Counted from the stretch's first letter, positions 10,508 through 57,187 are shown. The stretch: 64,000 nucleotides of DNA from Escherichia coli (GCF_041248615.1 NZ_CP158426.1), one strand, 5' to 3'. Numbers and translations: made by a program. Notes: generated by a model from the letters alone, not told the origin.

Positions 10508-12753
<2,246 letters not shown>

Positions 12754-18137: not shown

Positions 18138-18962
18138 TTAAAGCAGTAGCGGTAGGGTCGCGCTGGCTGTTTTCTGGCTCACCTCGCTGTACTGGTCATC
18201 CAGCGCAATCAGCGATGTGGTGAGTAGCTCTACCAACAGCATCACTCCCACTTTGGCAGTCAGCGCGCCGGCACTCAAGGGTCCTTCCGGTTTGGCCGCG
18301 ACCAGTTGAATATCACTCAGCGAAGCTAACGGACTGCGCGGTGTATTACTCAGCGCCAGTACACGCACACCTTGCTTACGCGCTAGTTTTACGACATGCA
18401 GCAGATCGCGCGTGGATCCAGAACTGGAAATCGCCACCACGAACGTGTTTTTACTAAGTGTTGTGGCGTTCATGGCAGCACGATGCATATCGCTGAACAA
18501 TTGTGCGGGTTTCCCCAGACGCAGGAGTTTATAATGTAAATACTCCCCCAGAATGGCACTGGCTGCTACGCCATAAATCTGCACTGACTGAGCCTGATGC
18601 AGTGCAAGCGCGGCTGCTTCCAGCAAGGTTCTGTCGAGTAATTTTGCTGTGTCCTGTATTGCTTGCACGGATTCATTGACCACATTGTCAATCTCATCAC
18701 CGCCGTGCTCTACAAACTGTACTTGTCGGAGATCGAGTGCCAGCGCCATTTTGAATTCGTTATAGCCCTTACACCCAAGCGTTCGGCACAGACGTGTGAC
18801 GCTAGCCTCGCTGGTGCCGCTTTCACGCGCAAGTTCGGTAATCGTCAGGTAGACAACTTTTGCCGGATCGCTAAGTACAAACTCTCCCAGCTTCTGTTGT
18901 GTTCGGCTATATCCATCAACGCTCTGGCGCAATCTCAGCAGCAGGTTTTCATTTTCTGACAT
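18138..18962 (-). CDS. RpiR/MurR-family transcriptional regulator (HTH plus SIS domain)
   Basis: 274 aa; N-terminal HTH (ITELARESGTSEASVTRLCRTLG) and C-terminal SIS-like region; divergent from the PTS EIICB gene. Confidence 0.8.
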   Translation of the reverse strand: MSENENLLLRLRQSVDGYSRTQQKLGEFVLSDPAKVVYLTITELARESGTSEASVTRLCRTLGCKGYNEFKMALALDLRQVQFVEHGGDEIDNVVNESVQAIQDTAKLLDRTLLEAAALALHQAQSVQIYGVAASAILGEYLHYKLLRLGKPAQLFSDMHRAAMNATTLSKNTFVVAISSSGSTRDLLHVVKLARKQGVRVLALSNTPRSPLASLSDIQLVAAKPEGPLSAGALTAKVGVMLLVELLTTSLIALDDQYSEVSQKTASATLPLLL

Positions 18963-19127
18963 GTAAAATCCTTAATGCGTTTATCTGTTGATAGTGTGAC
19001 GGAAAGGAGGGGATTGATGCCAGACATTTTAAAAAAGTATGATCGACTTCTTAGATTTTGATGGTGATTTTTATTTATAAGAATAATTATAGTAAAAATT
19101 TTCATCAAAAATCGAGGAGATGATAAA

Positions 19128-20684
19128 ATGATGCAAATGTTTAGCGGCGCTTCATCGGGGGGATGGTTTGAAAAAGCGCAGCGGTTCGGAAAATCCTTCA
19201 TGCTGCCGATTGCGGTATTGCCCGCAGCAGGGCTGTTATTAGGGATTGGTGGCGCGTTGTCAAATCCAAACACGTTGACGGCTTATCCGTTTTTAGATGC
19301 CGACTGGTTGCAGGCAATATTCACAATCATGACCAGCGCAGGTTCTATTGTGTTTGCCAACCTGTCGGTACTCTTTGCAGTCGGCGTCGCCGTGGGGCTG
19401 GCGAAATCGGATAAAGGCACTGCCGGGCTTGCGTCATTGCTGGCGTTTCTGGTGATGAATGCCACCATCAACGCCTTATTAACGCTCAACGGAACGCTGG
19501 CGCACAAGAACCCCGCTTCAGTTGGCCAGGGGATGACGCTTGGTATTCAGACACTGGAAACTGGTGTGTTTGGTGGGGTGGTGATTGGTCTCGTCACCTG
19601 CACTTTACATAGCCGTTTCAATAAAGTCTCACTACCTCAGTTTCTCGGTTTTTTTAGTGGTTCTCGTTTTGTACCCATTATCAGCTCCCTTGCCGCGATA
19701 GTAGTGGGTGCGGTTATGACGGTGGTGTGGCCGCATTTCCAGAAACTCATTTTTGGACTGGGCGACCTGGTGGATGCGACGGGCTATCTGGGGACGCTGT
19801 TGTACGGCTTCATCCTGCGTATGCTCGGTCCACTGGGTTTACACCATATCTTTTATTTGCCGTTCTGGACGACGGCGCTGGGCGGCAGTGAAATCGTCAA
19901 CGGCCAGTTGGTTGAAGGTACGCAGCGGATTTTCTTTGCCCAACTTGCCGATCCGAATACGCAGCAGTTCTACGCGGGTACCGCTCGCTTTATGTCCGGG
20001 CGCTTTATCACCATGATGTTTGGCCTGCTTGGCGCATGTCTGGCAATGTACCATACTGCAAAGCCGGAGAATAGAAAGGTTGTCGCCGGACTACTTTTGT
20101 CGGCAGCCCTGACCTCTTTCCTGACGGGAATCACTGAGCCTGTTGAGTTCTCCTTCCTGTTTGTCGCGCCCGTATTATACGTAATTCACGCCTTCTTCGA
20201 TGGTCTGGCGTTTATGGTCGCCCATATTTTACATATCACTATTGGGCAAACCTTTTCGGGCGGGCTTATCGATTTCCTTCTCTTCGGCGTGTTGCAGGGG
20301 GAAGCTAAAACAAACTGGATGTATGTCCCCATAGTGGGAATACCGTGGTTCTTCCTTTACTACTTTACTTTCCGCTATTTGATTAACCGCTTTGGCTGGC
20401 TGACGCCGGGGCGTGAGAACGTAACCCAGGTTGAATCCGGCCAGCCTCAGAGTGAACGCGCAGCGGCAGTCATTGCCGGGCTGGGAGGCAAAGAGAATCT
20501 GGAAGAGGTGGACTGTTGCGCCACGCGCCTGCGCGTGACGGTTAAAGAGAGCAGTAAGGTAGATGAAGCTGCGCTGAAAGTGGCCGGAGCGCGTGGCGTG
20601 ATTATTCGCGGCAACGGCGTTCAGGTGATTTATGGCCCTCATGTCACCATCATTAAAAACGAAGTCGAAGAGATTTTATCGTAA
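19128..20684 (+). CDS. PTS glucose-family EIICB component
   Basis: 518 aa; N-terminal EIIC membrane domain and C-terminal EIIB with CATRLR phosphorylation-site motif. Confidence 0.85.
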
Positions 20685-21373
20685 TGAAAACTGTACTGGA
20701 TTCCCTGAAAGGTAAATTAATCGTCTCCTGTCAGGCTCTGGAAAATGAGCCTCTACATAGTCCGTTTATTATGTCACGTATGGCGCTGGCGGCAGCACAA
20801 GGTGGTGCTGCAGGTATCCGTGCCAACAGCGTGGCGGATATTAGTGCTATCAAAGAGATTGTCTCCCTTCCGATGATAGGGATTATCAAACGCGATTACC
20901 CTGGCAGTGAGGTGTTTATCACGGCCACTCTCCGGGAAGTGGATGAGCTGATGACCGTTGAGCCGGAAATTATTGCCCTGGATGCTACTGCGCGCCCGCG
21001 CCCTGGTGGTCAGACGCTGGAAGAACTGGTCACGCAGATCCGCGCTCGCTACCCGTCCATACTTCTGATGGCAGATATAGCAACAGTAGAAGAGGCAGTG
21101 ACAGCTGAACGTCTGGGTTTTGACTGTGTGGGCACTACGCTCTACGGCTATACCGCAGAAACTGCCAGGCATGTGCTGGCGGAAAATGACTGTGGATTCT
21201 TACGTGAGGTCCTGAAAGCGGTCAGCGTTCCGGTCGTGGCGGAAGGGAATGTCGACACCCCGGAGTGCGCCGCACGTTGCCTGACATTAGGCGCTCATAC
21301 CGTGGTGGTTGGGGGGGCAATCACTCGTCCGCAGCAGATAACGACACGCTTTATTGCAGCGATCGCCTCGTAA
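20684..21373 (+). CDS. N-acetylmannosamine-6-phosphate 2-epimerase (NanE family)
   Basis: 229 aa; NanE-like TIM-barrel motifs ([15 protein letters not shown]); start overlaps the EIICB stop (translational coupling). Confidence 0.8.
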
Positions 21374-22572: not shown

Positions 22573-23028
22573 TTATTCAACACCTGAATCCCCCGCCGCT
22601 TCTCTCCCCTTTATAAAACGCCCCTTCCGGAATCCAGACCGCTGCAGTGCACGACGAAGATGACCGTATACCGTCTTGTCATTCTGCCCCGTCTCTTCTG
22701 TAATCTCCGCAATACTTAAACCTCTGTAATACCGGTTCAGTACCGCTCTGCGCTCTTCCAGCGTCAACACACCTCCGGCCGCTCTCAGATTCAGCATCGA
22801 CTTATTCAGAATACAGCAGGCCTCTCCGGTAAAAAGAATACGAACAATATCTGTATACTCATCATCACAGAATACAAAATAATATCTGAATGACCTGCCT
22901 GACTGCACCCTTCTTCTGTCTGATATGGCATCTTCTATATATCTGATTCGACTGCTTACGGTTCCAAATATCTCTCGCAGGGCTTTTTCAAAATAAATAT
23001 CTCTCGTCGCCAGGATTATATCCAGCAT
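22573..23028 (-). CDS. Putative HTH transcriptional regulator (LuxR / sigma-70 region 4-like C-terminus)
   Basis: 151 aa; C-terminal LTLEERRAVLNRYYRGLSIAEITEETGQNDKTVYGHLRRA helix-turn-helix; directly downstream of and co-oriented with the trimeric autotransporter gene. Confidence 0.45.
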   Translation of the reverse strand: MLDIILATRDIYFEKALREIFGTVSSRIRYIEDAISDRRRVQSGRSFRYYFVFCDDEYTDIVRILFTGEACCILNKSMLNLRAAGGVLTLEERRAVLNRYYRGLSIAEITEETGQNDKTVYGHLRRALQRSGFRKGRFIKGREAAGDSGVE

Positions 23029-23089: not shown

Positions 23090-24328
23090 TCAGAACTCAA
23101 AATTCACACCAGCATTCCACGATGCGGATGACCCACCTGCAGCAACTGCAACTTTTCCTGCCACATTCTCTGTGAAACGGTAGCCCACGCCCACCGCAAT
23201 GGCCTGCTCATCACGGTAACCACCAACGGCTGCTGTCGCGTTAAATTTTCCAACACTGTATGGCTGGAAAAGACCTGCCAGTGCCGCGCTCTGGGCTGCA
23301 CTCTCCCTTAACTCCTTCCGGTTCTCTTTAATCTGCTCCTGCATATTATTCATTCTCTCTGTCGCCATCTTCTGCCAGGCTTCCGTCAAATCCAGACGAT
23401 GACTGTTATTCCTTATCGCTGCTGTATTTGAGGCTATTGCTGCATCCGTCTGCGCCCTGTTCTTCACAAGCACATCGCTGAGATGTTCTGCCTGGCTTTT
23501 CGCTTCTTTACGGGCATCCCGTACACTTTTATCTGTATAAGCCCGGGAAACCTGAACTGTTTCATCCGCTTTTTCTTTTATTTCATCCTGAAGAGCAAGA
23601 GAAGATGCATCCGTATACGCCACCGCTGCCGATGTGCCTGCAATAATATCCCTGCTGAGTTCAGCATGAACTGTTGAAAGACGTTTATCTGTCTCGTCAA
23701 TTCTTTCATTCGTCTGCAACAAAAAGACCTGTGCATCATCAAATCGTTCATTCAGTTGCCCTACCGTCGCTGCATCTGTGTTATTGATACCATCAGACAC
23801 ATTTATAATCCGGCGGGTTTCCGGTGCTCCTTTGACACTCTCTCCATATCCCTCAGGCCCGGCACCAACAGATACCACGTTATTTTCTCCCGACACCTGT
23901 GAGCCATGGCCCAGAGCTACAGAACTGGTAGAATCCTGCACAGATGAAAACGCACCAATTGCCGAGCTCTGACGAGAAGAAATAAGTGACGCTTCTTTTC
24001 CTGCAACAGTCCCCCATTCAGAGTCAGCAATAAGTGCATCATGCCCCAGACTCACACTTCCCGGAGAGTTCACAACACCAGAATTATTCCCCAAAAGCAC
24101 AGTCCTGTTTGAGTCTAATAAAAAAGAATCATCACCAATCAACCATACATTTCTTACTTTATCAATCGAACGGCCAGCTACTGATTCTCCAACAAGAAAG
24201 CTATTATCTTCGCCAGGTTGAATCGGTCCGATTAAAATATCCTGAGCCTGAGCCTGAGCCGAGAGCAGCAGGGCCACACTCACTGCCAGCGCGCTTTTCT
24301 TTAAAAAAGCATCACGTCTTTTAAGCAT
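23090..24328 (-). CDS. Trimeric autotransporter adhesin (YadA-like anchor)
   Basis: Start at MLKRRDAFLKK with AGGAGA ribosome-binding site; signal peptide; Ser/Gly-rich head repeats; long coiled-coil stalk; C-terminal YadA-type membrane anchor ending ...AGVNFEF. Confidence 0.8.
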   Translation of the reverse strand: MLKRRDAFLKKSALAVSVALLLSAQAQAQDILIGPIQPGEDNSFLVGESVAGRSIDKVRNVWLIGDDSFLLDSNRTVLLGNNSGVVNSPGSVSLGHDALIADSEWGTVAGKEASLISSRQSSAIGAFSSVQDSTSSVALGHGSQVSGENNVVSVGAGPEGYGESVKGAPETRRIINVSDGINNTDAATVGQLNERFDDAQVFLLQTNERIDETDKRLSTVHAELSRDIIAGTSAAVAYTDASSLALQDEIKEKADETVQVSRAYTDKSVRDARKEAKSQAEHLSDVLVKNRAQTDAAIASNTAAIRNNSHRLDLTEAWQKMATERMNNMQEQIKENRKELRESAAQSAALAGLFQPYSVGKFNATAAVGGYRDEQAIAVGVGYRFTENVAGKVAVAAGGSSASWNAGVNFEF

Positions 24329-25079
24329 TCTGTTATTCTCCTGTATTATTACTTCACCAGCCAGAACGGTAGTGCGGAGCAAAAATACAGTGATAAGAAT
24401 CCTCTTTTATTAATTTAATAATGCCAGGAATATTATTGTGTATAATATGCGCCCTCAATTTAAGCAGCAGAAAACGACTGGCATTAAAATCATTAAATTA
24501 TAAACATATACAACTTTGTAAAGGTGGTTATAATAAACCTGATTACTTTAACGTCTGTATACCTGCACTGCTGATATCACAAAACAATAAAAATCCTGGT
24601 TAATATCTCTGATGATTGAATGAGAAATTCACGATGTCTGGTGAGAATTCTGTTCAAAACGAGGAATGCAGACGTACACGTGGCACGCACCACGTGATCC
24701 GTAGAAAAGCCTCTTGTTACGAATTTCGTAAACCGCACGTCTGTCTGGTCGTGCGGATTTTTTATCCGTCAACTTCACATGAAACCCGCCAGAGCACTGT
24801 TTCCGGATTCAGACATCAGGCATATTATTATCCACGATGTCGTGAACAAGATCACACTTTTGCAATTCCTTTATTGATCGAAAGCAGTTAATCACGGAAA
24901 TTAATTACCGGAGTGAAAGCATTTGCTATATAAACATTCCCAGAAGACATCTTCATGTTGAATATTATTCCCTTATTGACTAGCCCCTCTGACAGAATTT
25001 CAGAGGGGGTTTTTTATCAGTTTCACCATCCAACCCTGTACGCCAGAATGGTTTCACTGTCACTCAGTTCTGCTATTGC

Positions 25080-25350
25080 CTTTTTCATCTCCCTTTACCT
25101 TACGTTCTGCCAGAGTCTGAGCCATTTGAACAGGAGGTTATCATTGATATCGTGTTCCCGGGCAATACGGGCAACAGAGGCTCCTGGTTGCAAAACCAGT
25201 TTAACCATTTGAAGTTTAACTCATTTGAAAATGATCTGCGGGGTTCTGCGGATAATGTTTTTGCTCCATAACAGGCGTCCACCAGTTTGAAAAGGTGGGC
25301 ACCTACGTTACCAATACTGGCTTAATGGCTACATACGGCGGTCGGTTCTT
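25080..25350 (-). mobile_element. IS66-family element remnant (left terminal repeat plus 5' fragment of orfA)
   Basis: 25111-25200 is homologous to the orfA 5' region of the complete IS66-family element (48941-49075); 25290-25345 resembles its left terminal repeat (GGCTACATACGGCGGTC...). Confidence 0.55.
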
Positions 25351-25470
25351 ACGGTAAAACGACACAACCAAACGCTTCTTATCCTGCAATGAACTGCTTT
25401 ATTACCGAGTTTAGTGACCGCACAGACACTCACTTTTAAGAAAAACAGAATGGTAAACAAACTCCATGAA

Positions 25471-26424
25471 TTACAATAGCTCTCTGGCTGCCGCCACAAT
25501 ATCTTGCGCGGTTAACCCGTACTCTCTCTGTAAAAAGTCCTGAGTTCCAACCTGGCCATACCGCTCTTTAACCCCCACCCGACGCATGGGCACAGGACAA
25601 GTTTCTACAAGCACTTCAGCAACCGCTGAACCTAATCCATTATGAATACTATGGTTTTCACATGTTACGATCCGTCCTGTTTTTTCGGCATAATTTTTAA
25701 TTAACATCCGATCAACGGGTTTGAGCGTAAACATATCAATCACCGCTACACTTACCCCAGCCAGCTCAAGTTGACGTGCGGCCTCCAGGGCTTCCACCAC
25801 CATAATGCCATTAGCAATTAAGGTGACATCCGTACCTTCACGTAATACCTGCCCTTTGCCAATTGTAAAGGTTGTACCTGGTGCGTAAATACTCGCTGCT
25901 TGCTTCCGAATGGTACGAATCCAATAAAATCCTTCCAGTGCAACGAGTTGACGCAAGATATCGCTGAACATTACGGCATCTGTCATCTCCATCACCACCG
26001 AATGCGCCAGCCCGCGCACAATTCCCATATCTTCAAATGACATATGTGTTCCGCCATTGTGGCAAGCAGCAACACCCGCATCAGAAGCTATAACTTTGAC
26101 GTTAGCGCCCTGGTAATCAAGCGACATAAAGAGTTGATCAAAACAGCGACGACTGGCAAATGCGGTAAAGGTATGCACGAATGGCTTGCGCCCGGTTAAG
26201 GCCAGCCCTGCAGCTGTGCCGATAACATTGGCTTCCATAATGCCGCAATTAATGACGTGATCTGGATAATCCTGCGCCACGCTGTCCATTGCCATGGAAC
26301 TCATTAAATCAGCCTCAAGAGCAATGACAGAACTGACGTTTTTACTCTGTTGCGCGATAAAATCTGCATAAACTTTGCGCATTTCAATGCTGTCTTTTTG
26401 TCCTGCCGGTGCGAGATTAATCAT
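25471..26424 (-). CDS. Transketolase, C-terminal subunit (split transketolase)
   Basis: 317 aa with transketolase pyrimidine-binding and C-terminal domain motifs; overlaps the N-terminal subunit gene by 8 bp. Confidence 0.85.
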   Translation of the reverse strand: MINLAPAGQKDSIEMRKVYADFIAQQSKNVSSVIALEADLMSSMAMDSVAQDYPDHVINCGIMEANVIGTAAGLALTGRKPFVHTFTAFASRRCFDQLFMSLDYQGANVKVIASDAGVAACHNGGTHMSFEDMGIVRGLAHSVVMEMTDAVMFSDILRQLVALEGFYWIRTIRKQAASIYAPGTTFTIGKGQVLREGTDVTLIANGIMVVEALEAARQLELAGVSVAVIDMFTLKPVDRMLIKNYAEKTGRIVTCENHSIHNGLGSAVAEVLVETCPVPMRRVGVKERYGQVGTQDFLQREYGLTAQDIVAAARELL

Positions 26425-27247
26425 GCATAGCCTCCAGTTGGCGAATTGTTTCGTTTAGCGTCCCCTTCATCTCTTCTGTGAGGCGTAAGTGATGAGAATT
26501 ACTGAGTTGCTCGAGACACGGCACCCCCTGCCCTTTAATGCTATCGAGAATGACCACTCTCGGTCTGGCCTCAGCTGGCAGGACAGGTTTAACTACATTC
26601 AACAAGCCCTCAATATCATCGCCCTTCACTGTCACGACATCAAAACCGAAAGCCCGGAATTTTCCTTCCAAATCAAATGGATTAATAATTTCATCCAGTT
26701 GACCATCAAGCTGCTGTTTGTTCCAGTCCACAAACACAGTGAGGTTATTCAAACGATGATGCGCGATAAACTGGAAAGCTTCCCAACATTGGCCTTCATT
26801 AAGTTCGCCATCGCCGACAATACAAAAAACCCGATTCTTGCGCCCCGCCAGTTTATGCGACAGCGCCATCCCTCCGGCAATGGATATCCCCTGCCCCAGC
26901 GATCCTGTGGTGCTATCAACACCACACGTTTTTAGCCGATCCGGATGACTTGGTAAGCGGGTTCCGTTCTGATTTAAGGTGCTTAATTCTTCCAGTGGAA
27001 AGTAGCCTTTCAGCGCCAGAGTACTGTAGAGAGCAGGTCCGGCATGTCCTTTGGACAGGATAAAATAGTCACGCTCAGGCCAGTCGGGAGCAGCAGGATC
27101 AATTTTCATTACAGCGCCATAAAGCACTGCCAGCGTTTCCACAACCGACATGCTGCCACCATAATGACCGAAGCCGAGATGAGTTAATGATTTAAGCGTC
27201 TGGATACGTATATCCCGTGCAAATTGAGTCAATTCTTTAACATTCAT
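26417..27247 (-). CDS. Transketolase, N-terminal subunit (thiamine-diphosphate binding)
   Basis: 276 aa with GHAGPALY and GDGE...G thiamine-diphosphate motifs. Confidence 0.85.
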   Translation of the reverse strand: MNVKELTQFARDIRIQTLKSLTHLGFGHYGGSMSVVETLAVLYGAVMKIDPAAPDWPERDYFILSKGHAGPALYSTLALKGYFPLEELSTLNQNGTRLPSHPDRLKTCGVDSTTGSLGQGISIAGGMALSHKLAGRKNRVFCIVGDGELNEGQCWEAFQFIAHHRLNNLTVFVDWNKQQLDGQLDEIINPFDLEGKFRAFGFDVVTVKGDDIEGLLNVVKPVLPAEARPRVVILDSIKGQGVPCLEQLSNSHHLRLTEEMKGTLNETIRQLEAMHD

Positions 27248-28638
27248 GATTTGGCTCCACTCTTCTTCTGCGCTTTGGCAGCGATTTTGTTACTGGCGAA
27301 AATGTTCCAGGCAACCAGCAGCACAAATAGCGCTACTACAAGTCCGGTGATGGCAAAAGGTGAGAGATAACGTGCCAGGTTTCCGAGGACGATGCCGACA
27401 GCACCAAAATCTGCATCGGAAAAGGTCGTATTAGCAAAGCCTATCGCCCCAAGAACCGGCAATAACAGTACTGGCAGGAAGGTAATCAATAAGCCATTCG
27501 CAAAAGCACCAATCATTGCGCCACGACGTCCCCCCGTAGCGTTACCAAATACGCCAGCAGCCGCCCCGGTAAAAAAGTGAGGAACGACACCCGGAAGAAT
27601 CAACACCAGTTTCATCTGTCCCAACAAAAATAGCCCTACCAGACCGCCAAAAAAGCTAAACAAGAAACCAACTAACACTGCGTTTGGCGCATACGGATAC
27701 ACAACCGGGCAATCGAGGGCCGGACGGGCATTCGGCACCAGCTTTTCTGAAAACCCGGTAAATGCCGGAACTATTTCAGCAAGGATTAAACGCACGCCTT
27801 GCAGAATAATAAATACACCAGCAGCGAAGGTGATGGCCATTATGATGGCGTAGACAAGGTAGTTTTGACCACCACTGAACTGGCTTTCAACGAACTCACG
27901 ACCAGCACTGATCGCCATGATCAGATAAATCACCATCATCGTAAGAGAAATAGAGATGGAACTGTCGCGCAGGAAGCTCAGATTTTTGGGCAAATTCATC
28001 TCTTCGGTGGAGCGGGAACCTTTACCGCACACGCTGCCAATCCAGCCAGAAAGTACATATCCCAGAGTGCCAAAGTGACCAAAAGCAATGTCATCATTCC
28101 CCGTAATACGCTTCATATAGCGTTGTGCTAATGCCGGGAAAAATGCCATCACAAGTCCCAGAATAAGAGAACCGGTAAAGACCAGTGATATACCTTCAAA
28201 ACCAGCCACTGTCAGAATCACACCAATCATGCAGGCCATGTAAAATGTGTGGTGTCCGGTCAGGAAGATATATTTAAGGCGGGTAAAGCGGGCAACAATA
28301 ATATTCGCCACCATACCAAATGCCATAATAAGGGCCGTCGATGCGCCATATTTTTCCAGCGCAATAGAAACAATAGCCTCATTATTCGGAATGATGCCCT
28401 GAATATTAAAGGCATGTTCAAACATACTCCCAAGAGGATTTAACGAACCAACCAAAACAGTGGCACCACCGCCCAGTACAATAAAGCCGAGAATAGTTTT
28501 AATTGTACCTTTAACAACATCTGAAAAAGATTTTTTCTGGGCAACCAGACCAATTAAGGCAATCAAGCCGACCAGTATCGCGGGCACTTTAAGTATATCA
28601 ACAACAAAATTCAGCGTTTCAAGGATAAACATATCCAC
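27244..28638 (-). CDS. PTS ascorbate-family EIIC (UlaA/SgaT-like)
   Basis: 464-aa polytopic membrane protein with UlaA-like organisation; overlaps the transketolase N-subunit start. Confidence 0.85.
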   Translation of the reverse strand: MDMFILETLNFVVDILKVPAILVGLIALIGLVAQKKSFSDVVKGTIKTILGFIVLGGGATVLVGSLNPLGSMFEHAFNIQGIIPNNEAIVSIALEKYGASTALIMAFGMVANIIVARFTRLKYIFLTGHHTFYMACMIGVILTVAGFEGISLVFTGSLILGLVMAFFPALAQRYMKRITGNDDIAFGHFGTLGYVLSGWIGSVCGKGSRSTEEMNLPKNLSFLRDSSISISLTMMVIYLIMAISAGREFVESQFSGGQNYLVYAIIMAITFAAGVFIILQGVRLILAEIVPAFTGFSEKLVPNARPALDCPVVYPYAPNAVLVGFLFSFFGGLVGLFLLGQMKLVLILPGVVPHFFTGAAAGVFGNATGGRRGAMIGAFANGLLITFLPVLLLPVLGAIGFANTTFSDADFGAVGIVLGNLARYLSPFAITGLVVALFVLLVAWNIFASNKIAAKAQKKSGAKS

Positions 28639-28654
28639 CTCGCTTCAATTAAGG

Positions 28655-28927
28655 TTATTGTTTTGCTAACCAGTTACGCAGTTGCGTTTCGAGTTCATTA
28701 ATATCAATGATGTTGTTGATAACCACCAACTGACTTTCCGGTACGCTGGCACTGGCAGCAATATCTTTGGCCATCACAAATAAATCGGCAGCCCCTGGCG
28801 TTGCTGATGAGAGATCGGAATGTTCCACTTCCGCCTCTATATCCATTTTTTTCAGAACTTTTTTAATATTCATTTCGACCATAAAACTACTACCAAGCCC
28901 TGAGCCACAAATAGCCATAATTTTCAT
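28655..28927 (-). CDS. PTS ascorbate-family EIIB
   Basis: MKIMAICGSGLGSS active-site cysteine motif; start chosen at the internal Met (the track ORF has a longer N-terminus); start uncertain. Confidence 0.7.
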   Translation of the reverse strand: MKIMAICGSGLGSSFMVEMNIKKVLKKMDIEAEVEHSDLSSATPGAADLFVMAKDIAASASVPESQLVVINNIIDINELETQLRNWLAKQ

Positions 28928-29005
28928 TATATTCACCATTTTAAGTTGAAGAAGTCCCATCACGCAACGGCGCAATGTTGTGAAAAGACTGAATTTATAA
29001 TGTAA

Positions 29006-29455
29006 TCAGAACCGTGAAATTATCTTTTTTATTTCCTCCACATTGCGAGCCTGATGCAATTCATGTAAATCTTTTTCGCTGGAGAATAACTCAGCCAGTG
29101 CAGATATCATTTCGATATGACTGTGTTTGTCTGGTGCGGCAAGTAAAATGATAACATCTACAGGATCAAATTCCTCTGTATGAAAACTGACACCTTCTTC
29201 AAGTTTTAATAATGATAAACCTAATCCTTTTGCCCCTTCTTCTGGTCGGGCATGCGGCATGGCCAGCCCGGGTGCCAGGACATAATAAGGCCCCAGTTTT
29301 TCATGTTGTGTCTTTATCGCACTGAGATAATCCGTCGTAATTATCTCTGCATCCAGTAACGGTCTGGCACAGATATCTAATGCCTGCTGCCAGGTTGCGG
29401 CATTCTTTCGTAATGCGATTGTTGAATCAGAAAGCCAGATATTAAGCACTCCCAC
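29006..29455 (-). CDS. PTS EIIA (mannitol/fructose-type fold; ascorbate-family partner)
   Basis: 149 aa with EIIA-2-like histidine region (LAMPHARPE). Confidence 0.75.
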   Translation of the reverse strand: MGVLNIWLSDSTIALRKNAATWQQALDICARPLLDAEIITTDYLSAIKTQHEKLGPYYVLAPGLAMPHARPEEGAKGLGLSLLKLEEGVSFHTEEFDPVDVIILLAAPDKHSHIEMISALAELFSSEKDLHELHQARNVEEIKKIISRF

Positions 29456-29706
29456 CCCCTAATTTCTTATTTATATGACCAGAATGTATTCAAGTAACGA
29501 CGGTATATCTGCGATCAATATCACAAAGATAGCGCTATCAGGAGGTATTGTTCGAATTTGTGATAGCGCTATCAAAATAGATTTCACTGATTAAATCCAG
29601 ACTTATGGCAGATATTAAGAGGTATACTCTGCTACTGGCAGTGCAGGAAGCCGTTGATGATAAGTAATAAAAGATCTCCATATGTAGTCGCTGAGCAGGA
29701 TTTTGT

Positions 29707-30726
29707 ATGGCAATAACCCGAAAACGTCGTAGTACAGGTAAAGTCACTATTGCTGATGTCGCGCAACTCGCGGGAGTTGGCACAATGACTGTATCCAGAG
29801 CGTTACGCACTCCCGAACAAGTTTCAGATAAATTGAGGGAGAAGATTGAAGCCGCAGTTAATGAATTAGGGTATATGCCCAACCTCACTGCAAGCGCACT
29901 GGCATCGGCATCTTCACACACGATCGCAATGGTCGTGCCAAACCTGGCTGAAGCGGGATGCACGGAAATGTTTGCCGGGCTGCAACATGTGCTACAACCA
30001 GCGGGGTATCAAATAATCCTGGCTGAGTCACGCCATCGTCTGGAACAAGAAGAAAAACTGCTGGAAACCCTGCTGGCTTCTAATATCGCTGCAGCAATTT
30101 TGCTTAGTGTTGAGCATAATAGTACCGTGCGTCACTTGCTCAAAAATGCCTCGATTCCTGTTATAGAAATCGGTGCCATTCGTACTGATCCGATAGATAT
30201 CAACATTGGTATTGATAATGTTGCAGCAATGTTCGAGCTGACGGATATGCTGGTACAACGTGGTTATCAGAATATCGGTTTGCTATGCGCTAACCAGGAA
30301 CAGTGGATCTTTCAGCAGCATTTACAGGGATGGTATAAAGCTATGTTACGCCATCATATGTCTCCCAACCGTGTTATTAACGCTGCTCTGCCACCTGTTT
30401 TTTCCACCGGAGCATCACAACTACCGGAATTTTTGCTCGCATGGCCGGAACTGGATGCCCTGGTATGTGTGTCAGATGAGTTAGCCTGCGGTGTTCTCTA
30501 TGAATGTCAACGAAGACGGATCAAAGTTCCAGACGAGCTCGCCGTAGTAGGATTTGGTGACAGTGACGTCAGCAAAGTTTGCCAACCATCATTAACAACA
30601 ATGGCCGTTCCTCACAGGAAAATTGGTCTGGAAGCAGGAAATGTTTTGCTGGAACGAATTAAAGAAGGTAACTGGAGCAATCAGATATTCATTGAGCCCT
30701 GTTTATGTTTACGTGAAAGCTGCTGA
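29707..30726 (+). CDS. LacI-family transcriptional regulator
   Basis: 339 aa; N-terminal HTH (TIADVAQLAGVGTMTVSRAL) plus periplasmic-binding-protein-like domain; divergent from the PTS/transketolase operon. Confidence 0.85.
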   Translation: MAITRKRRSTGKVTIADVAQLAGVGTMTVSRALRTPEQVSDKLREKIEAAVNELGYMPNLTASALASASSHTIAMVVPNLAEAGCTEMFAGLQHVLQPAGYQIILAESRHRLEQEEKLLETLLASNIAAAILLSVEHNSTVRHLLKNASIPVIEIGAIRTDPIDINIGIDNVAAMFELTDMLVQRGYQNIGLLCANQEQWIFQQHLQGWYKAMLRHHMSPNRVINAALPPVFSTGASQLPEFLLAWPELDALVCVSDELACGVLYECQRRRIKVPDELAVVGFGDSDVSKVCQPSLTTMAVPHRKIGLEAGNVLLERIKEGNWSNQIFIEPCLCLRESC

Positions 30727-31847
30727 AGCTGGGGGACTGGTATCTTTCAGCTCACTGATTTTGTTGCTGAACCTGATATATCCTTCGGTTTTCCACAACC
30801 AGGGGAAGGGTGTCATCATAAGGCGTGATGACACCCTGAATTCCCATCCTGTATCTGCAGAAAATTTTTCGTAAATAAATTAATTTAATAACTAAAAAGA
30901 AAATACAATAAGCAAAATATCAATTACAGAATGTTCGTTTGTTTAAAGAACCTGCTGGTCCTGCCATTAATATTACCTGCTGATTGCTTCACATCCGGAT
31001 TCCTCGCACTGCGCGCGGGTTATTGTTTCGTTTTCGGCCACGGGGTCGCCAGGGCTCTGTTTGCAGGCCATGATGGCCTGACCTGTACTGTTTCTCAGGC
31101 ACTGAGATGTCCGTTTACGCCATTTGTTCCCGGATATCCTTAACCTCTGACGTTTGTTCCCTGCCCCTCTGTCTGATAACGAATACGCTCACAACGCACA
31201 GTACTGAACAATACCGACAACAACATGTCTTACATGAAATTCGCTGTAACATCCACCGGAAAACATTTTCAGATATCGGATGAGGTACTACTTCCATTGA
31301 CAGCGCGAGGTAACAAAATTGATGGTAACTCTGACCATTAACCGTAAACCGCAGGGTATTTTCAGTAAATCACCGGCAACGCCGCTGCAGAATAAAACGG
31401 ACACAGCATACAAAATGAAGGCCGGTGACCAGATACCACAGTTGAACGATAAACAGAAACCTGCTGATAAAACACCGTGGCGACATGACAAAACGCCAGA
31501 GCAAAAACCGTAAGCGCATTATTCGTCTTGTGGAACTCTGGCCTGAGTCATTCAACCGGGAAAAAAACAAAACCACTTAAAGTGGGGATACCTGACGACC
31601 TGATACAGGATATCGCCATCCGAGAACTGGCGTTTGGCGCTGGTACATTACATGCAGCAGTGGCGTCTTATGTGCAGTCTCCGCGCTATTACCGTGCGTT
31701 AATAGCAGGTGGCGCCCGTTACAACCTGAACGGTCAGCCGTGCGGGGAAGTGACACCACAGGAACAGAAAGAGGCAGAGACCCGTTTAATGATGCTGAAT
31801 GACCGACGAAAAGACAGAAAACCTCGTTGACTGCACAACAGCGCTGT

Positions 31848-46265: not shown

Positions 46266-46609
46266 TCCCGTTACCTTCCGGGACCAAAATTTGGCTGGTT
46301 GCCGGTATCACCGATATGAGAAATGGCTTCAACGGCCTGGCTGCGAAAGTACAGACGGCGCTGAAAGACGATCCCATATCCGGCCATGTTTTCATTTTCC
46401 GGGGCCGCAGCGGCAGTCAGGTTAAACTGCTGTGGTCCACCGGTGACGGGCTGTGCCTCCTGACCAAGCGGCTGGAGCGTGGGCGCTTCGCCTGGCCGTC
46501 AGCCCGTGATGGCAAAGTGTTCCTTACGCAGGCGCAGCTGGCGATGCTGCTGGAAGGTATCGACTGGCGACAGCCTAAGCGGCTGCTGACCTCCCTGACC
46601 ATGCTGTAA
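46262..46609 (+). CDS. IS66-family OrfB (TnpB)
   Basis: 115-aa ORF, paralogous to 48328-48678; overlaps orfA by 4 bp. Confidence 0.75.
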   Translation: MIPLPSGTKIWLVAGITDMRNGFNGLAAKVQTALKDDPISGHVFIFRGRSGSQVKLLWSTGDGLCLLTKRLERGRFAWPSARDGKVFLTQAQLAMLLEGIDWRQPKRLLTSLTML

Positions 46610-46704
46610 ATCTCTTTATCCTGGTTGTCACAGAATAAGCCCGGTAAAATACGGGCTTATGAACGACATCTCTTGTAAGCGTCAACGGAGCACCGTATTG
46701 ACGC

Positions 46705-48297
46705 TTATTTATTGGTGAGTACTACGTTCCATGGCAGGAGTTCGTCAACACAGTTGGAGGGCCATTCCGGCAGTACGCTCAGAATATGGCGCAGATACGC
46801 TTCCGGATCGATACCGTTCAGACGGCAGGTGCCGATCAGCCCGTACAGCAGTGCTCCACGCTCGCCGCCGTGATCGCTACCGAAGAACACGTAATTTTTC
46901 TTTCCGAGACAGACTGCACGAAGCGCTCTTTCCGCTGTGTTATTGTCCGCTTCTGCCAAACCATCATCACTGTAATAACAGAGGGCGTCCCACTGATTCA
47001 GTACATAGCTGAACGCTTCGCCCAGTCTGGATTTTTTCGACAGCGTGCCATTCTTCTCCACCATCCATTCATGCAGCGACGTCAGTAACGCTTTGCTTCG
47101 CTGCTGCCTGGCTGCAAGACGCTCTGACTCTGGTAATCCCCGTATTTCATCCTCGATGGCGTACAGTTCACTGATTCGCTTCAGGGCTTCTTCTGCCGTC
47201 GCACTTTTGCTGCTGATGTATACATCGTGGATTTTTCGCCGGGCATGGGCCCAGCACGCAACTTCTGTCAGTGCACCACCTTCACGTTCTGCACTGAACA
47301 ACCTGTCGTAACCTGTGAACGCATCCGCCTGCAGGATACCCCGGAAGGGGCGAAGGTGTTGCTCCGGGTGTTTCCCCTGCCGGTTCGGCGAGTACGCGAA
47401 CCAGACCGCTGGAGGAGATGACGAACCCACATTGCGATCATCCCGGACATACGTCCAGATACACCCTGTTTTCGCCTTTTTCTGACCCGGTGCCAGTACC
47501 TTTACCGGTGTGTCATCAGTGTGAACCTTGCGGGTATTCATTACATAACGGTACAGGGCATCATTCACCGGTGTCATTAACTGGCAGCACGCGTCAACCC
47601 AGTTGGAGAGTAAGGCCCGGCTCAGTTCGACACCCTGGCGGGCAAAGATTTCACTCTGACGATACAGTGGCAGATGTTCGCAGTATTTTCCCGTTAACAC
47701 GCGGGCAAGTAATCCGGGGCCCGCGATACCACGCTCTATCGGGCGGGACGGCGCCGGTGCTTCAACAATACAGTCACATTTTGTACAGGCTTTTTTTACC
47801 CGTTCTGTGCGGATCACTTTCAGGGCACTGCTCACCAGTTCCAGCTGTTCAGCGCTGACTTCCCCCAGATAATCCAGCTCACCGCCACACTCCGGGCAAC
47901 AGCTTTCTTCTGGCTCCAGGCGGTGTATTTCACGGGGAAGGTGTGCCGGTAACGGACGACGATGGCGCGACTGTCGCAACTGGCGGGGAACCTGAGGATC
48001 GTCTTCCCGCCCACTGTAACGATCGCTGTCCTGTTCACGTTGTTTCAGCAGAGCCTCAGCCAGTTCAACTTCACGACGCAGTTTTTCAGAACGGGTACCG
48101 AACAGCATCCGGTGCAGTTTTTCTATCTGAGCCCGCAGATGTTCTATTTCCCGTTCATCTTCTTCGATCTTTTCTTCGGCACGTGCCAGTGCAGAGCGCA
48201 GGAAGGCCTCCGTCTCTTCAACCAGACTCAGTTGCTGGTCTTTCTGACGGAGCTGGCTTTCCAGTTCTGCAATGCGAATGAGGTATTTCTGACTCAT
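46705..48297 (-). CDS. IS66-family transposase OrfC (TnpC)
   Basis: 530 aa; N-terminal leucine zipper/coiled coil, CPECGG zinc-finger motif, DDE core. Confidence 0.85.
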   Translation of the reverse strand: MSQKYLIRIAELESQLRQKDQQLSLVEETEAFLRSALARAEEKIEEDEREIEHLRAQIEKLHRMLFGTRSEKLRREVELAEALLKQREQDSDRYSGREDDPQVPRQLRQSRHRRPLPAHLPREIHRLEPEESCCPECGGELDYLGEVSAEQLELVSSALKVIRTERVKKACTKCDCIVEAPAPSRPIERGIAGPGLLARVLTGKYCEHLPLYRQSEIFARQGVELSRALLSNWVDACCQLMTPVNDALYRYVMNTRKVHTDDTPVKVLAPGQKKAKTGCIWTYVRDDRNVGSSSPPAVWFAYSPNRQGKHPEQHLRPFRGILQADAFTGYDRLFSAEREGGALTEVACWAHARRKIHDVYISSKSATAEEALKRISELYAIEDEIRGLPESERLAARQQRSKALLTSLHEWMVEKNGTLSKKSRLGEAFSYVLNQWDALCYYSDDGLAEADNNTAERALRAVCLGKKNYVFFGSDHGGERGALLYGLIGTCRLNGIDPEAYLRHILSVLPEWPSNCVDELLPWNVVLTNK

Positions 48298-48327
48298 GGC
48301 CGTTTTTATAATGCGGCCAGGCGTTTT

Positions 48328-48678
48328 TTACAACATTGTCAGTGCGTTAAGGCGGAATGTTTTTGGCTGACGCCAGTCCAGCTTATCGAGGAGCATTGCC
48401 AGTTGCGAGCGGGTAATGGATACCTTGCCGTCACGTACCGCAGGCCAGATAAACTGGCCTTCCTCCAGGCGTTTGGTGAACAGGCACAGACCATCAGCAT
48501 CAGCCCAAAGAATTTTAACGGTGTCACCCCGTCGGCCACGGAAGATAAACAGGTGACCGGAGAAGGGATTATCATTCAGCACATGTTGTACCTGTTCTCC
48601 CAGTCCGTTGAAGGATTTACGCATATCGGTAACGCCGGCAACGAGCCAGATACGGGTACCTGATGGGAGTGAGATCAT
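48328..48678 (-). CDS. IS66-family OrfB (TnpB)
   Basis: 116 aa, typical IS66 OrfB. Confidence 0.8.
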   Translation of the reverse strand: MISLPSGTRIWLVAGVTDMRKSFNGLGEQVQHVLNDNPFSGHLFIFRGRRGDTVKILWADADGLCLFTKRLEEGQFIWPAVRDGKVSITRSQLAMLLDKLDWRQPKTFRLNALTML

Positions 48679-49100
48679 CTTCCCCTCCCGGTCAGTTCAC
48701 GGATCAACACCGTGAGCAGCTCTGGCGATGGATTTTCCAGCGTCATGTTACCGTGACGGAATTCCACCTTGCAGGAACTGGCACTGACTCTGGTCTGAGT
48801 GGAAGTGGATAAAGACGGCGCAATGGCCGCCACAGGTTCTTTCTGCTCATCCGGCGTTATTTCTACAGGTAATAATTCAACGCCAGTGTCAGAAGAGGTC
48901 GTTACCGGAAGACGCCGCGAAACACGCCCTTCGTTCTGCCAGAGCCTGAGCCATTTGAAAATAACATTATCATTGACGCCATTTTCACGTGCAATCTGTG
49001 CAACACAAGCTCCAGGTTGTGATGCCAGTTCCACCATACGAAGTTTGAATTCATTCGAATAGTTTTTACGAGGTTCTTTTCGCCAGTCCTGTAATTCCAT
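48675..49100 (-). CDS. IS66-family OrfA (TnpA)
   Basis: 141 aa, typical IS66 OrfA; overlaps orfB by 4 bp. Confidence 0.8.
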   Translation of the reverse strand: MELQDWRKEPRKNYSNEFKLRMVELASQPGACVAQIARENGVNDNVIFKWLRLWQNEGRVSRRLPVTTSSDTGVELLPVEITPDEQKEPVAAIAPSLSTSTQTRVSASSCKVEFRHGNMTLENPSPELLTVLIRELTGRGR

Positions 49101-49269: not shown

Positions 49270-50421
49270 ATGGCACTCTGTACACGACAAGTATCAGCCA
49301 GTGAAATCGCCAGGCGTATTGGTGTCAGTCGTGCGGTATTGTATAAATGGAAAGATAAAATTATCGGCAACAGTGCTTACCAGACTATGCGTAAACATAA
49401 CGAACCTTCCCTGGAGGCAGAACGCGATGCGTTGCGGGAGGAAGTCGCCCGACTGAATCAGGAAATACGCCGCCGGCAGATGGAGCTGGATATTCTGAAA
49501 AAGGCGGAGGAAATCATAAAAAAAGACCCGGGCATCAGTATCAGTCACCTGAACAACAGAGAGAAAACGAAGATCGCTGATGCCCTGAGACAAACATATC
49601 CCCTGACAGAATTACTGCATGTTCTGGGCCTTGCCCGTAGCAGTTATTTTTATCACCGGGCTGCACTGAAAGCCGGTGATAAATACGCCACGATACGTAC
49701 GATGCTGACAGATATATTTAACAGTAATTACCAGTGTTATGGCTATCGTCGCCTGCATGCGATGCTCAGGCATGAGGGGGGGCGGCTATCAGAAAAGGTT
49801 GTACGCAGACTTATGGTGGAAGAACAGCTTGTCGTCAGCCGTAACCGTCGTCGCCGCTACAGCTCATATTGCGGAGAAATCGGACCGGCTCCGGATAACC
49901 TTATCGCCAGAGATTTTAAGGCGGAGCAACCTAATCAGAAATGGCTGACAGATATCACGGAGTTCCACCTCCCTGCAGGTAAAGTCTGGCTATCATCGGT
50001 GGTGGACTGCTTCGATGGAAAAGTTGTGAGCTGGTCTCTCAGTACACGCCCCGATGCTGAACTGGTCAACACTATGCTGGATAGCGCTGTCGAAACGTTA
50101 AATGCTGGCGAACGACCGGTGATACACAGTGACAGAGGTGGGCATTATCGCTGGTCAGGCTGGCTGGAAAGAGTGAATGCAGAAGGTCTTATTCGCTCAA
50201 TGTCCCGCAAAGGATGTTCACCTGATAATGCGGCATGCGAAGGCTTTTTCGGCAGACTGAAAACGGAAATGTATCATGGGCGTAAATGGTCGGGCATCAC
50301 GCCAGAAAAGTTCATGCAGCAAGTGGATACTTACATCAGATGGTATAACGAGCGGCGTATAAAATTATCGCCGGGTGCAGTCAGCCCCAAAATGTACCGC
50401 CAACAATGCGGGCTGGAATGA
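49270..50421 (+). CDS. IS3-family transposase (fused OrfAB-type; 5' end abutted by the IS66-family element)
   Basis: HTH N-terminus, DDE core and C-terminal SPDNAACEGFFGRLKTE motif; the frame is open upstream into the IS66 terminal repeat, implying 5' truncation. Confidence 0.7.
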   Translation: MALCTRQVSASEIARRIGVSRAVLYKWKDKIIGNSAYQTMRKHNEPSLEAERDALREEVARLNQEIRRRQMELDILKKAEEIIKKDPGISISHLNNREKTKIADALRQTYPLTELLHVLGLARSSYFYHRAALKAGDKYATIRTMLTDIFNSNYQCYGYRRLHAMLRHEGGRLSEKVVRRLMVEEQLVVSRNRRRRYSSYCGEIGPAPDNLIARDFKAEQPNQKWLTDITEFHLPAGKVWLSSVVDCFDGKVVSWSLSTRPDAELVNTMLDSAVETLNAGERPVIHSDRGGHYRWSGWLERVNAEGLIRSMSRKGCSPDNAACEGFFGRLKTEMYHGRKWSGITPEKFMQQVDTYIRWYNERRIKLSPGAVSPKMYRQQCGLE

Positions 50422-56002: not shown

Positions 56003-57187
56003 TTAACTTTCCCGGCTGGAGAGTGAATCAATGTAATCAGCGTACCATTGCATCATTTCACGGCGGCCATCGAGATACAGGGCATGATTATAGGTACCCC
56101 TGATGGAATTTTTATCCACATGAGCTAACTGCATTTCAATCCAGGCGGAGTTAAAGCCTTGTTCATGCAGAATTGTACTCATGGTGTGTCTGAAACCATG
56201 CCCTGTGAGTCTTCCCTTATATCCAAGTAATTCAATTACTTGGTTAATGCTTTCCTTACTAATTGGTTTGCGGGGATCATTTCTACCGATAAAGACTAGG
56301 GGATGATGTTTTGAGATTGGTTCAAGCTGCTTAAATAGCATAATAACCTGCTCAGAGAGCGGCACAATATGAGGTCGCTTCATCTTCATTACTTCTGCCG
56401 GGATCTCCCACAATTTTGTCTCAAAATCGATATCTTCCCAGCGTGCAAAACGCAGTTCTTGTGTTCGTACGCCGGTTAACATAATGATCTGAGTAGCTGT
56501 CTTAGTGATTATACTTCCGGTATAACCCGCCAGATCGTTGAGGAAGTGGGGAAGTTCATTAGCAGTAAGAAAGGGAAAATGTACTTTTTTCGGTGTAGCT
56601 AAAGCACTGGCAAGATCGGGGGCTGGGTTATAGTCTGCCCGGCCAGTAACAATTGCATAGCGGAACACCTCACCACAGCGCTGGCGTACCTTGCGCATTT
56701 TCTCCAGAGCTCCACGTTTTTCCATTTTACGCAGTGCTTCCAGTAACTCCATTGGTTTGATTTCGGCAATAGGGCGCTTGCCAATGTAGGGAAAAATGTC
56801 TTTTTCAAAGGTATCAATGATTTCATCACGATAGCGTAATGACCACCGATCGGCTTTTGACTGGTGCCATTCGCGAGCAATAGCCTCGAACGTATTTTTC
56901 AGACTTATTTGCTGCGCGATTTTTTCTTCCTTTTTTGCCTCCCCTGGATCGCCTCCAGCAGCGAGGAGTTTCCTGGCTTCACTGCGTTTCTCGCGAGCAT
57001 CGGCTAGCGTTACATCGGGGTATACGCCAATAGAAAGCATCTTTTCTTTACCAGCAAAGCGGTACTTCATGCGCCAGTATTTAGAACCATTAGTGTTAAT
57101 CAGTAGATACATACCGCCGCCATCAGCAAGCTTATAGGGTTTGTCTTTGGGTTTTGCGGTTTTCACTTTGATATCGGTTAATGCCAT
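56003..57187 (-). CDS. P4-type tyrosine integrase (selC-associated)
   Basis: 394 aa; N-terminal MALTDIKVK...; C-terminal catalytic region with R...HGFRHT...Y; lies 300 bp from the selC 3' end. Confidence 0.9.
   Translation of the reverse strand: MALTDIKVKTAKPKDKPYKLADGGGMYLLINTNGSKYWRMKYRFAGKEKMLSIGVYPDVTLADAREKRSEARKLLAAGGDPGEAKKEEKIAQQISLKNTFEAIAREWHQSKADRWSLRYRDEIIDTFEKDIFPYIGKRPIAEIKPMELLEALRKMEKRGALEKMRKVRQRCGEVFRYAIVTGRADYNPAPDLASALATPKKVHFPFLTANELPHFLNDLAGYTGSIITKTATQIIMLTGVRTQELRFARWEDIDFETKLWEIPAEVMKMKRPHIVPLSEQVIMLFKQLEPISKHHPLVFIGRNDPRKPISKESINQVIELLGYKGRLTGHGFRHTMSTILHEQGFNSAWIEMQLAHVDKNSIRGTYNHALYLDGRREMMQWYADYIDSLSSRES

Follow-up and report, generated by a model that had tools for sequence, protein, structure and literature searches.

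We analysed one strand of a 64,000-nt stretch of Escherichia coli DNA (GCF_041248615.1, NZ_CP158426.1), called the window below, in which positions 25471–30726 hold five minus-strand genes for the EIIA, EIIB and EIIC components of a phosphotransferase system (PTS) and for the N- and C-terminal subunits of a transketolase (TK-N and TK-C), together with a divergent LacI-family gene. This module has probably been acquired horizontally and is probably functional, being a copy of the tktC-PTS-pagR module of enterobacteria, which Salmonella has as STM2340–STM2345. An operon of this composition had been proposed in a first-pass annotation made from the sequence alone, and the listing of open reading frames (ORFs), the matches to NCBIfam models with curated cut-offs by which we assigned the proteins to families, and RefSeq, which annotates this set of six genes in E. 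coli genomes with 100% identity across the stretch, all agree with it. The features are as follows.

25471–26424, minus strand: TK-C, transketolase C-terminal subunit (Pyr and C domains), 317 aa, NCBIfam E value 3e-68
26417–27247, minus strand: TK-N, transketolase N-terminal subunit (PP domain), 276 aa, NCBIfam E value 2e-68
27244–28632, minus strand: PTS EIIC of the ascorbate (UlaA/SgaT, EIIC-GAT) family, 462 aa
28655–28927, minus strand: PTS EIIB, 90 aa
29006–29449, minus strand: PTS EIIA of the mannitol/fructose/ascorbate class, 147 aa
29707–30726, plus strand: LacI/GalR-family regulator, 339 aa
30727–30752, plus strand: terminator-like hairpin directly 3' of the regulator gene, the cross-genus homology block ending at 30730

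The transketolase subunits lie where the first-pass annotation had put them (25471–27247). Its description of five co-oriented, overlapping genes is right as to orientation, but overlaps were found at only two of the four junctions (8 nt for TK-N/TK-C and 4 nt for EIIC/TK-N), the others being gaps of 22 and 78 nt. Similarly, the EIIC and EIIA genes exist as proposed at 27244–28638 and 29006–29455, but each start had been placed two codons upstream of the RefSeq start (28632 and 29449, respectively), and both RefSeq starts agree with alignments of orthologues; for EIIC, the upstream codon is an alternative GTG start at 28638. The lengths of all six proteins equal those in Salmonella, except that EIIC read from the upstream start has two extra N-terminal residues. 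Neither a riboswitch nor a leader RNA was detected in the module by an Rfam scan. Two Salmonella proteins (P0002 and P0003; 737 aa) consist of fused EIIC and TK-N frames, presumably through a frameshift at the 4-nt overlap, and confirm independently that these two genes adjoin in Salmonella.

Nucleotide homology to other genera covers exactly 25470–30730, with 85.7% identity to E. albertii and 75.9% to Salmonella, and because it ends at gene boundaries, the block consists of exactly the six genes. The Salmonella locus is identical to the window in its six-gene architecture and orientation, and has the same two operators, CRP-like site and Asp/Asn transketolase signature, which are described below. 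Amino acid identity to Salmonella is 73–94% over the six genes (86% for TK-C, 88% between the regulator and its Salmonella neighbour gene, and 92% between EIIC and a Salmonella protein cluster of 3426 member sequences), that to E. albertii is 91% for TK-C and 97% for EIIC, and EIIC is 83–88% identical to proteins from Serratia, Rahnella, Gibbsiella and others. By genes, order, identity and regulatory sites, the window module belongs to the same orthologous group as the Salmonella tktC-PTS-pagR locus. All six genes are under purifying selection, with dN/dS ratios against E. albertii of 0.03–0.09 for each.

The six genes adjoin pta-ackA, in the order seen in the window, in Salmonella, Serratia and Rahnella, and in these genera as well as in E. 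albertii, which is collinear with Salmonella through the flanks, they are situated between the pta/yfcC side and a NUDIX gene (yfcD). The LT2 locus tags STM2340–STM2345 agree with a set of six genes in this interval between yfcC and the NUDIX gene, and of these tags we take STM2340/2341, from gene order, to be the split transketolase TktC; STM2345 is named PagR, a LacI-family regulator, in the literature. About 15 other genomes of Enterobacterales have the six genes arranged in this way, and the hosts that a scan of one genome per species added are, besides E. albertii, Enterobacter, Pluralibacter, Cedecea, Pseudocitrobacter, Superficieibacter, Hafnia, Mixta and Mangrovibacter. In E. coli K-12, the yfcC-yfcD gap is 32 bp and the module is absent between the two genes. 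The module is thus ancestral at this Enterobacterales core locus and missing from it in K-12, and some E. coli carry it solely as cargo on an island, having acquired it again horizontally. The setting in the window is marked by two further features.

57487–57581, minus strand: tRNA-Sec (selC) gene, found by Rfam scan
25107–25282, minus strand: insertion sequence (IS) gene fragment, 'transposase, frameshifted, incomplete' in RefSeq, 189 bp beyond the module end

The tRNA-Sec gene in the window places the module on a selC-linked island, while the Salmonella locus lies in the core chromosome (yfcC-yfcD); with the absence from the K-12 core locus and the homology ending at gene boundaries, the earlier labelling of the operon as cargo is justified. 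Beside selC, a 394-aa ORF (56003–57187, minus strand) is probably the island integrase. The module has been noted before in the island PAI I5155 of the avian pathogenic E. coli (APEC) strain IMT5155 (PMC4232414). An IS66 remnant had been proposed downstream, at 25080–25350. An IS fragment is indeed present, but its attribution to IS66 is weak, a 42-codon stretch (25122–25247, minus strand) matching an accessory protein (TnpA) of IS66 with 55% identity and an E value of 9e-10.

The intact module was found in 132 of 5426 complete E. coli genomes (2.4%), all copies being at least 99% identical; among its carriers are isolates from humans, dogs and pigs and the strains APEC IMT5155 and APEC O2-211. 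A further 234 complete E. coli genomes retain no more of it than the final 179 bp of TK-C, which abut IS1, and the remainder through the regulator gene has been deleted. In one of these, that of E. coli CRE1540 (8001–8928 of our locus L002), sul2, aph, tetA and floR make up a resistance region at a distance of a few kb. The low carriage, the stumps beside IS1 and the flanking IS fragment are what would be seen if the module were inert, hitch-hiking cargo heading for decay in E. coli. We hold this to be very improbable in view of the six intact frames of Salmonella length (apart from the upstream EIIC start), the near identity of the 132 copies, and the intact operators and active-site residues.

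For the active-site residues, we aligned the transketolase with the solved split enzyme of Carboxydothermus hydrogenoformans, with human TKT and with TktA of E. coli. The N and C halves are adjacent separate genes, and for both the best solved match is 6YAK, the active split transketolase of C. hydrogenoformans (E values of 3e-64 for N and 1e-70 for C), whose two-chain organisation (6YAK/6YAJ) is that of the window, so that the window enzyme is of the split type. In TK-N, the motif G-D-G-X(~28)-N for thiamine diphosphate (ThDP) and Mg2+ is kept as G145-D146-G147 ... N176, aligned with Asp155/Asn185 of TktA, and His28, His68, His101 and His252 correspond to the catalytic histidine cluster (E. 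coli His26, His66, His100 and His261). In TK-C, Glu64 corresponds to the cofactor-activating glutamate (E. coli Glu411) and His127 to E. coli His473, and Phe86 and Phe89 are also kept; the activating glutamate and the catalytic histidines are conserved in four genera. The first-pass annotation had considered that the subunits might prove inactive by lacking catalytic residues; on alignment, the cofactor-binding and catalytic residues are intact, and it is two residues of the substrate channel that differ.

Among the residues of the canonical sugar-phosphate channel, TK-C keeps Arg16, Ser43 and Arg173 (E. coli Arg358, Ser385 and Arg520), but E. coli His461 and Asp469, both conserved in the canonical transketolases compared, are replaced by Asp115 and Asn123, so that the full set of five is not present. 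In the E. coli enzyme, His461 is a phosphate ligand and Asp469 bonds the C2 hydroxyl of the acceptor. The local motif of TK-C is S-D-A-G-V-A-A-C-H-N-G-G-T-H as against the canonical T-H-x-G-x-x-x-G-E-D-G-x-x-H, and the two split enzymes differ accordingly, that of C. hydrogenoformans having the canonical His...Gly-Glu-Asp-Gly where the window has Asp...Cys-His-Asn-Gly. Among the 150 best representatives of 50%-identity clusters, the pair is Asp/Asn in 54 and the canonical His/Asp in 52, and the Asp/Asn type makes up nearly all of the closest matches among these representatives. Judged from these alignments, the window enzyme belongs to a large divergent transketolase subfamily characterised by Asp/Asn.

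Gene contexts of this subfamily in 80 genomes, collected by a locus search with a 10-sequence alignment, fall into three groups. In a neighbour-joining tree, the PTS-linked TK-C proteins are all in one clade, and they have in common His122, where other subfamily members have Tyr, Phe or Leu. These PTS-type loci form group (a), in which the Enterobacterales have the LacI regulator, while Bacillaceae, Paenibacillus, Listeria newyorkensis and one Fusobacterium have an EIIA-bearing PRD regulator followed by IIB-IIC-TKN-TKC; EIIC of the latter loci is 57–69% identical to that of the window and the transketolase subunits are 50–60% identical. The order of the PTS and transketolase genes has therefore been kept across three phyla while the regulator has been exchanged. 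A gene like FSA/TalC (fructose-6-phosphate aldolase/transaldolase) lies directly 3' of TK-C at three Firmicutes loci (L039, L044 and L081), of which the first two are PTS-type Bacillales loci and the third is from a metagenome-assembled genome of Carnobacterium, where a PTS gene was not found on the short contig.

Group (b) consists of operons from Clostridia and relatives (L042, L045, L049, L053, L054, L056 and L066) with the order [malic enzyme]-type-II-GAPDH-like-PGK-like-TKN-TKC-IolB-IolD-IolE-IolG-Ni-dependent malate racemase(-PFK), and group (c) has polyol, glycyl-radical-enzyme or RpiB surroundings. The transketolases of group (b) are about 50% identical to the window enzyme, and no equivalent of the IolC kinase or the IolJ aldolase was found among the annotated genes of these clusters, in which a few genes are unannotated. 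This composition suggests to us that their donor is 5-dehydro-2-deoxy-D-gluconate, stereochemically a carboxylate analogue of xylulose-5-phosphate, which would be converted to D-malate semialdehyde and then, by oxidation with a gain of ATP, to D-malate, to be racemised and decarboxylated; this chemistry is our own inference. A limited literature search on transketolase with apulose or with inositol/iolD gave nothing relevant.

These contexts bear on whether the window transketolase is specialised for a non-standard ketol donor (a tetrulose phosphate, a ketose derived from ascorbate or from an acid sugar, or one whose chemistry at C4 is unusual), in which case the module would be a two-step pathway for an unrecognised nutrient. 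The Asp/Asn pair is invariant across the clade and His122 is private to the PTS-linked enzymes, the clostridial sisters in inositol clusters have a logical donor of this kind by the chemistry proposed above, and the nearest named relatives of the regulator sense sugar acids. Yet the phosphate-binding Arg16, Ser43 and Arg173 are kept, the transaldolase-like gene at some Bacillales loci fits ordinary pentose-phosphate chemistry, and the Salmonella orthologue appears, by the title of a paper, in the ordinary pentose phosphate pathway: three Salmonella transketolases are said to contribute to that pathway (Shaw et al. 2018, by its title). On balance, we consider such a specialisation unlikely for the window enzyme. 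A wider proposition, to which we give slightly more credence but which is still doubtful, is that the PTS-linked clade, as a distinct cross-phylum clade with a remodelled pocket (His461 to Asp, Asp469 to Asn, and the private His122), may, rather than consist of spare pentose-phosphate enzymes, cleave a non-standard, PTS-delivered phosphorylated ketose, for example one derived from ascorbate or a sugar acid, and that the clostridial sisters may likewise represent a branch of inositol fermentation. If true, the former would be a two-step catabolic route new to description, and the latter a transketolase-dependent, ATP-yielding branch via D-malate semialdehyde, D-malate and malate racemase.

The PTS proteins give information on the substrate from the side of uptake. 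EIIC matches NF009549 ('PTS ascorbate transporter subunit IIC') with 989 bits against a cut-off of 890 and the UlaA structures 4RP8 and 5ZOV with an E value of 5e-51, and PF03611 is recorded on its orthologues, so that it has the UlaA/EIIC-GAT fold. Identities to the E. coli proteins are 27.6% for EIIC with UlaA, 24% for EIIB with UlaB, and 40% and 44% for EIIA with UlaC and CmtB. The predicted phospho-cysteine of EIIB is Cys7, aligned with the N-terminal Cys of UlaB, and the predicted phospho-histidine of EIIA is His66 within GLAMPHARPEEG, aligned with the site of UlaC; the EIIA His and the EIIB Cys are thus shared with E. coli ulaG/ulaABCDEF, which encodes a PTS of the same family. The gene order differs, being A-B-C in the window and C-B-A in E. 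coli ula, and the window module has a transketolase instead of the lactonase, decarboxylase and epimerases of ula, for which no genes were found in the module of any genus examined. Neither close identity to UlaA nor linkage of the ulaG/ulaDEF type was found, and ascorbate specificity cannot be assigned on these grounds. At the positions of the presumed ascorbate ligands of UlaA (Gln139, His194 and Asp314), the window EIIC has Tyr, His and Asp. The regulator is of the LacI type, unlike UlaR; the latter is of the DeoR type, and its database record describes it as a transcriptional repressor.

The nearest functional information comes from the ula2 operon of Streptococcus pneumoniae (ulaR2-ulaB2-ulaA2-tktN-tktC; SP_2127-2131), in which ascorbate-family EIIB and EIIC genes are followed by a split transketolase in one transcript, a layout like that of the Firmicutes and Fusobacterium loci retrieved here. 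Its regulator is a PRD-type activator carrying an EIIA domain, whereas the window has a LacI-type regulator and a free EIIA, and the likeness to the window is one of gene organisation. Ascorbic acid at 10 mM induced pneumococcal ula2 2–3 fold, and the 15 other carbon sources tested gave no induction (PMC4324149); a ketopentose substrate had been proposed for it earlier (PMC3302838). The module could accordingly serve auxiliary uptake of L-ascorbate (or of isoascorbate or dehydroascorbate) as a second Ula system ('Ula2'), with ascorbate-6-phosphate passing through UlaG, UlaD, UlaE and UlaF to D-xylulose-5-phosphate, which the transketolase would drain. Besides the specific response of ula2, the passing of the NCBI ascorbate IIC model by EIIC, the presence of ulaG and ulaA-F elsewhere in E. 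coli, and the transketolase gene that closes the pneumococcal ula operon (PMC3302838) speak for this. The low identity of EIIC to UlaA and the gene order different from ula speak against it, as do the regulator, which is nearer to gluconate/idonate repressors than to UlaR, and the pneumococcal data themselves, because the likeness is known from gene organisation and not from protein sequence, and the induction was small, at 10 mM, and may be due to a breakdown product (PMC4324149). We therefore rate ascorbate uptake as an outside chance, on a par with the specialised donor for the window enzyme.

The regulator has full-length matches to 17 LacI-family models, and PF00356 and PF13377 are recorded on its orthologues. 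Its best named relatives are the gluconate/idonate repressors GntR and IdnR, but the top scores against named members (270, 225 and 202) are all below the curated cut-offs (400, 500 and 433, respectively), and it cannot be equated with GntR, IdnR, CytR, RbsR or another named member. From these scores, it is a LacI-family member of its own, and its ligand may be a sugar acid. We aligned the 257-bp spacer between the EIIA and regulator genes (29450–29706) from four genera, E. coli, Salmonella, Serratia and Rahnella; it is strongly divergent between genera outside the following conserved elements, to which a match from a generic promoter scan is added.

29527–29540, no strand assigned: putative operator O1, the palindrome GATAGCGCTATC (29528–29539) with flanks, having the LacI-type central CG and invariant in the four genera
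29561–29574, no strand assigned: putative operator O2, TGATAGCGCTATCA (palindrome 29562–29573), 34 bp centre to centre from O1
29510–29525, minus strand: CRP-like site TGTGATATTGATCGCA, both half-sites conserved in the four genera
29483–29488, minus strand: -10-like hexamer TACATT (TAnAnT in the four genera), lying some 30 bp downstream of the CRP-like site's centre
29575–29547, minus strand: weak sigma-70-like match overlapping O2

Two exact copies of GATAGCGCTATC were found as against 0.07 expected by chance, and both are invariant in the four genera. The CRP-like site is the sole match to TGTGA-N6-TCRCA in the 64-kb window (0.25 expected per window). The regulator, with its helix-turn-helix and sugar-binding core and with palindromic candidate operators with a central CG near the predicted promoter, is by these sequence features of the LacI/GalR family. 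The generic promoter and terminator scan performed no better than on shuffled sequence (13 promoter-like sites versus 11.3 expected), and because it was uninformative, we based the promoter model on cross-genus conservation. The hexamer at 29483–29488 may be the promoter element, and the arrangement fits a class-II CRP-dependent promoter under LacI-type control via two operators. A copy of the operator with one mismatch, GATAGCGCTGTC, is present at 50080–50091, distant from the module, and is probably due to chance.

The control region also bears on whether there is metabolic coupling at all, because the transketolase might simply be a third pentose-phosphate isoenzyme for stress or stationary phase and the regulator mainly a global or virulence factor. 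In Salmonella, tktC expression is said to follow that of tktB, which is RpoS-dependent, and PagR is reported to act on genes of SPI-2, a pathogenicity island; both would agree with this. We find it improbable, since the PTS and transketolase genes are adjacent, in the same order and with overlapping stop and start codons in three phyla although the regulator has been exchanged, and since the operators are conserved in the local spacer.

A coupled, functional module thus being the reading that we prefer, its working may be pictured as follows. Phosphate would be relayed from phosphoenolpyruvate via EI, HPr, His66 of EIIA and Cys7 of EIIB to a carbohydrate imported by the UlaA-type EIIC and phosphorylated during its entry. 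The phosphorylated product or a close derivative would be the ketol donor for the two-subunit ThDP transketolase, which would move a C2 unit to an aldose phosphate and so bring carbon into the pentose-phosphate and glycolytic pools. The LacI-type regulator, bound to the two GATAGCGCTATC palindromes, would silence the operon as long as its effector is lacking (the substrate, probably, or the phosphate of it), and cAMP-CRP is probably a co-activator. As the first-pass annotation stated, the sequence does not disclose the substrate; at best we would guess at a ketopentose or a compound related to ascorbate, ending as xylulose-5-phosphate or a close analogue. In order of preference, we place first such a ketose-type or ascorbate-related source of a ketol donor, second auxiliary ascorbate uptake, and third a truly non-standard donor.

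Several points weigh against this reading. The transketolase is the only catabolic enzyme encoded in the module, which means that the PTS product must already be a transketolase substrate or must rely on housekeeping enzymes, and the replacements in the predicted channel mean that a standard role with xylulose-5-phosphate or ribose-5-phosphate is not guaranteed. The promoter model would put the operators near -57 and -91, farther upstream than the CRP-like site, which is unusual for simple steric repression, and Salmonella PagR is described as an activator of virulence genes. Finally, the IS1-associated deletion in 234 genomes indicates that the module is dispensable.

Comparison with other accessory sugar loci requires care because similar gene names recur. 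The tkt1 island of APEC O1 resembles the present case in having an accessory transketolase beside a PTS gene on an island of extraintestinal pathogenic E. coli (ExPEC), but we rejected it as this module, since its transketolase is single-chain, its PTS gene encodes a glucose-type IIBC and the island is a different one of 16 kb. CFT073 c3405-c3410 (PAI-metV) was considered and rejected as this operon, being a set with a maltose/glucose-type PTS, and the Listeria F2365 virulence genes tkt, eiic and bglG were rejected as this cassette because they belong to three separate loci.

The remainder of the window contains several other accessory elements. A second sugar module at 18138–21373, named by correspondence in position and size with IMT5155 and AR_0085, is composed of a MurR/RpiR regulator gene (18138–18962, minus strand), a maltose/glucose-type PTS IIC gene (19128–20684, plus strand) and a gene like N-acetylmannosamine-6-phosphate 2-epimerase (20684–21373, plus strand), and may correspond to the cluster type of CFT073 c3405-c3410. 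A YadA-like trimeric autotransporter adhesin gene (23090–24382, minus strand), whose length is strain-variable (1359 versus 1647 nt in two RefSeq genomes), is followed by a gene for a sigma-factor-like small helix-turn-helix protein (22573–23028, minus strand). Two full-length copies of isrC, an Hfq-binding small RNA (11575–11697, minus strand, and 41050–41172, plus strand; 150.2 bits each), are inverted about 29 kb apart and bracket the part of the island with the module. IS66-family genes (homologues of tnpA, tnpB and the transposase) are present on both strands at 45909–49082, which suggests that two copies or fragments of IS66 type are oriented oppositely there. Long ORFs near the left end of the window are situated where setC, yicL and nlpA, genes from the neighbourhood of selC, are expected from the AR_0085 annotation, a correspondence of position only.

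As it stands, the module has already been annotated and mentioned in the literature, and it is a further case of an accessory carbohydrate operon carried by an ExPEC/APEC island. With the present analysis, its genes in E. coli are connected with the tktC/pagR locus of Salmonella, the module is shown to be ancestral in Enterobacterales and to have been re-acquired by E. coli, and candidate operator and CRP-like sites are supplied for reporter and binding assays. The remaining interest lies in the substrate of a cassette conserved across three phyla, several carriers of which are pathogens or gut bacteria, and in the remodelled transketolase pocket. If the pocket reflects a new substrate, its identification would give a function to the PTS-transketolase cassette from enterobacteria to Bacillales and Fusobacterium, and would also explain the recruitment of a metabolic regulator, PagR, into the control of Salmonella virulence.

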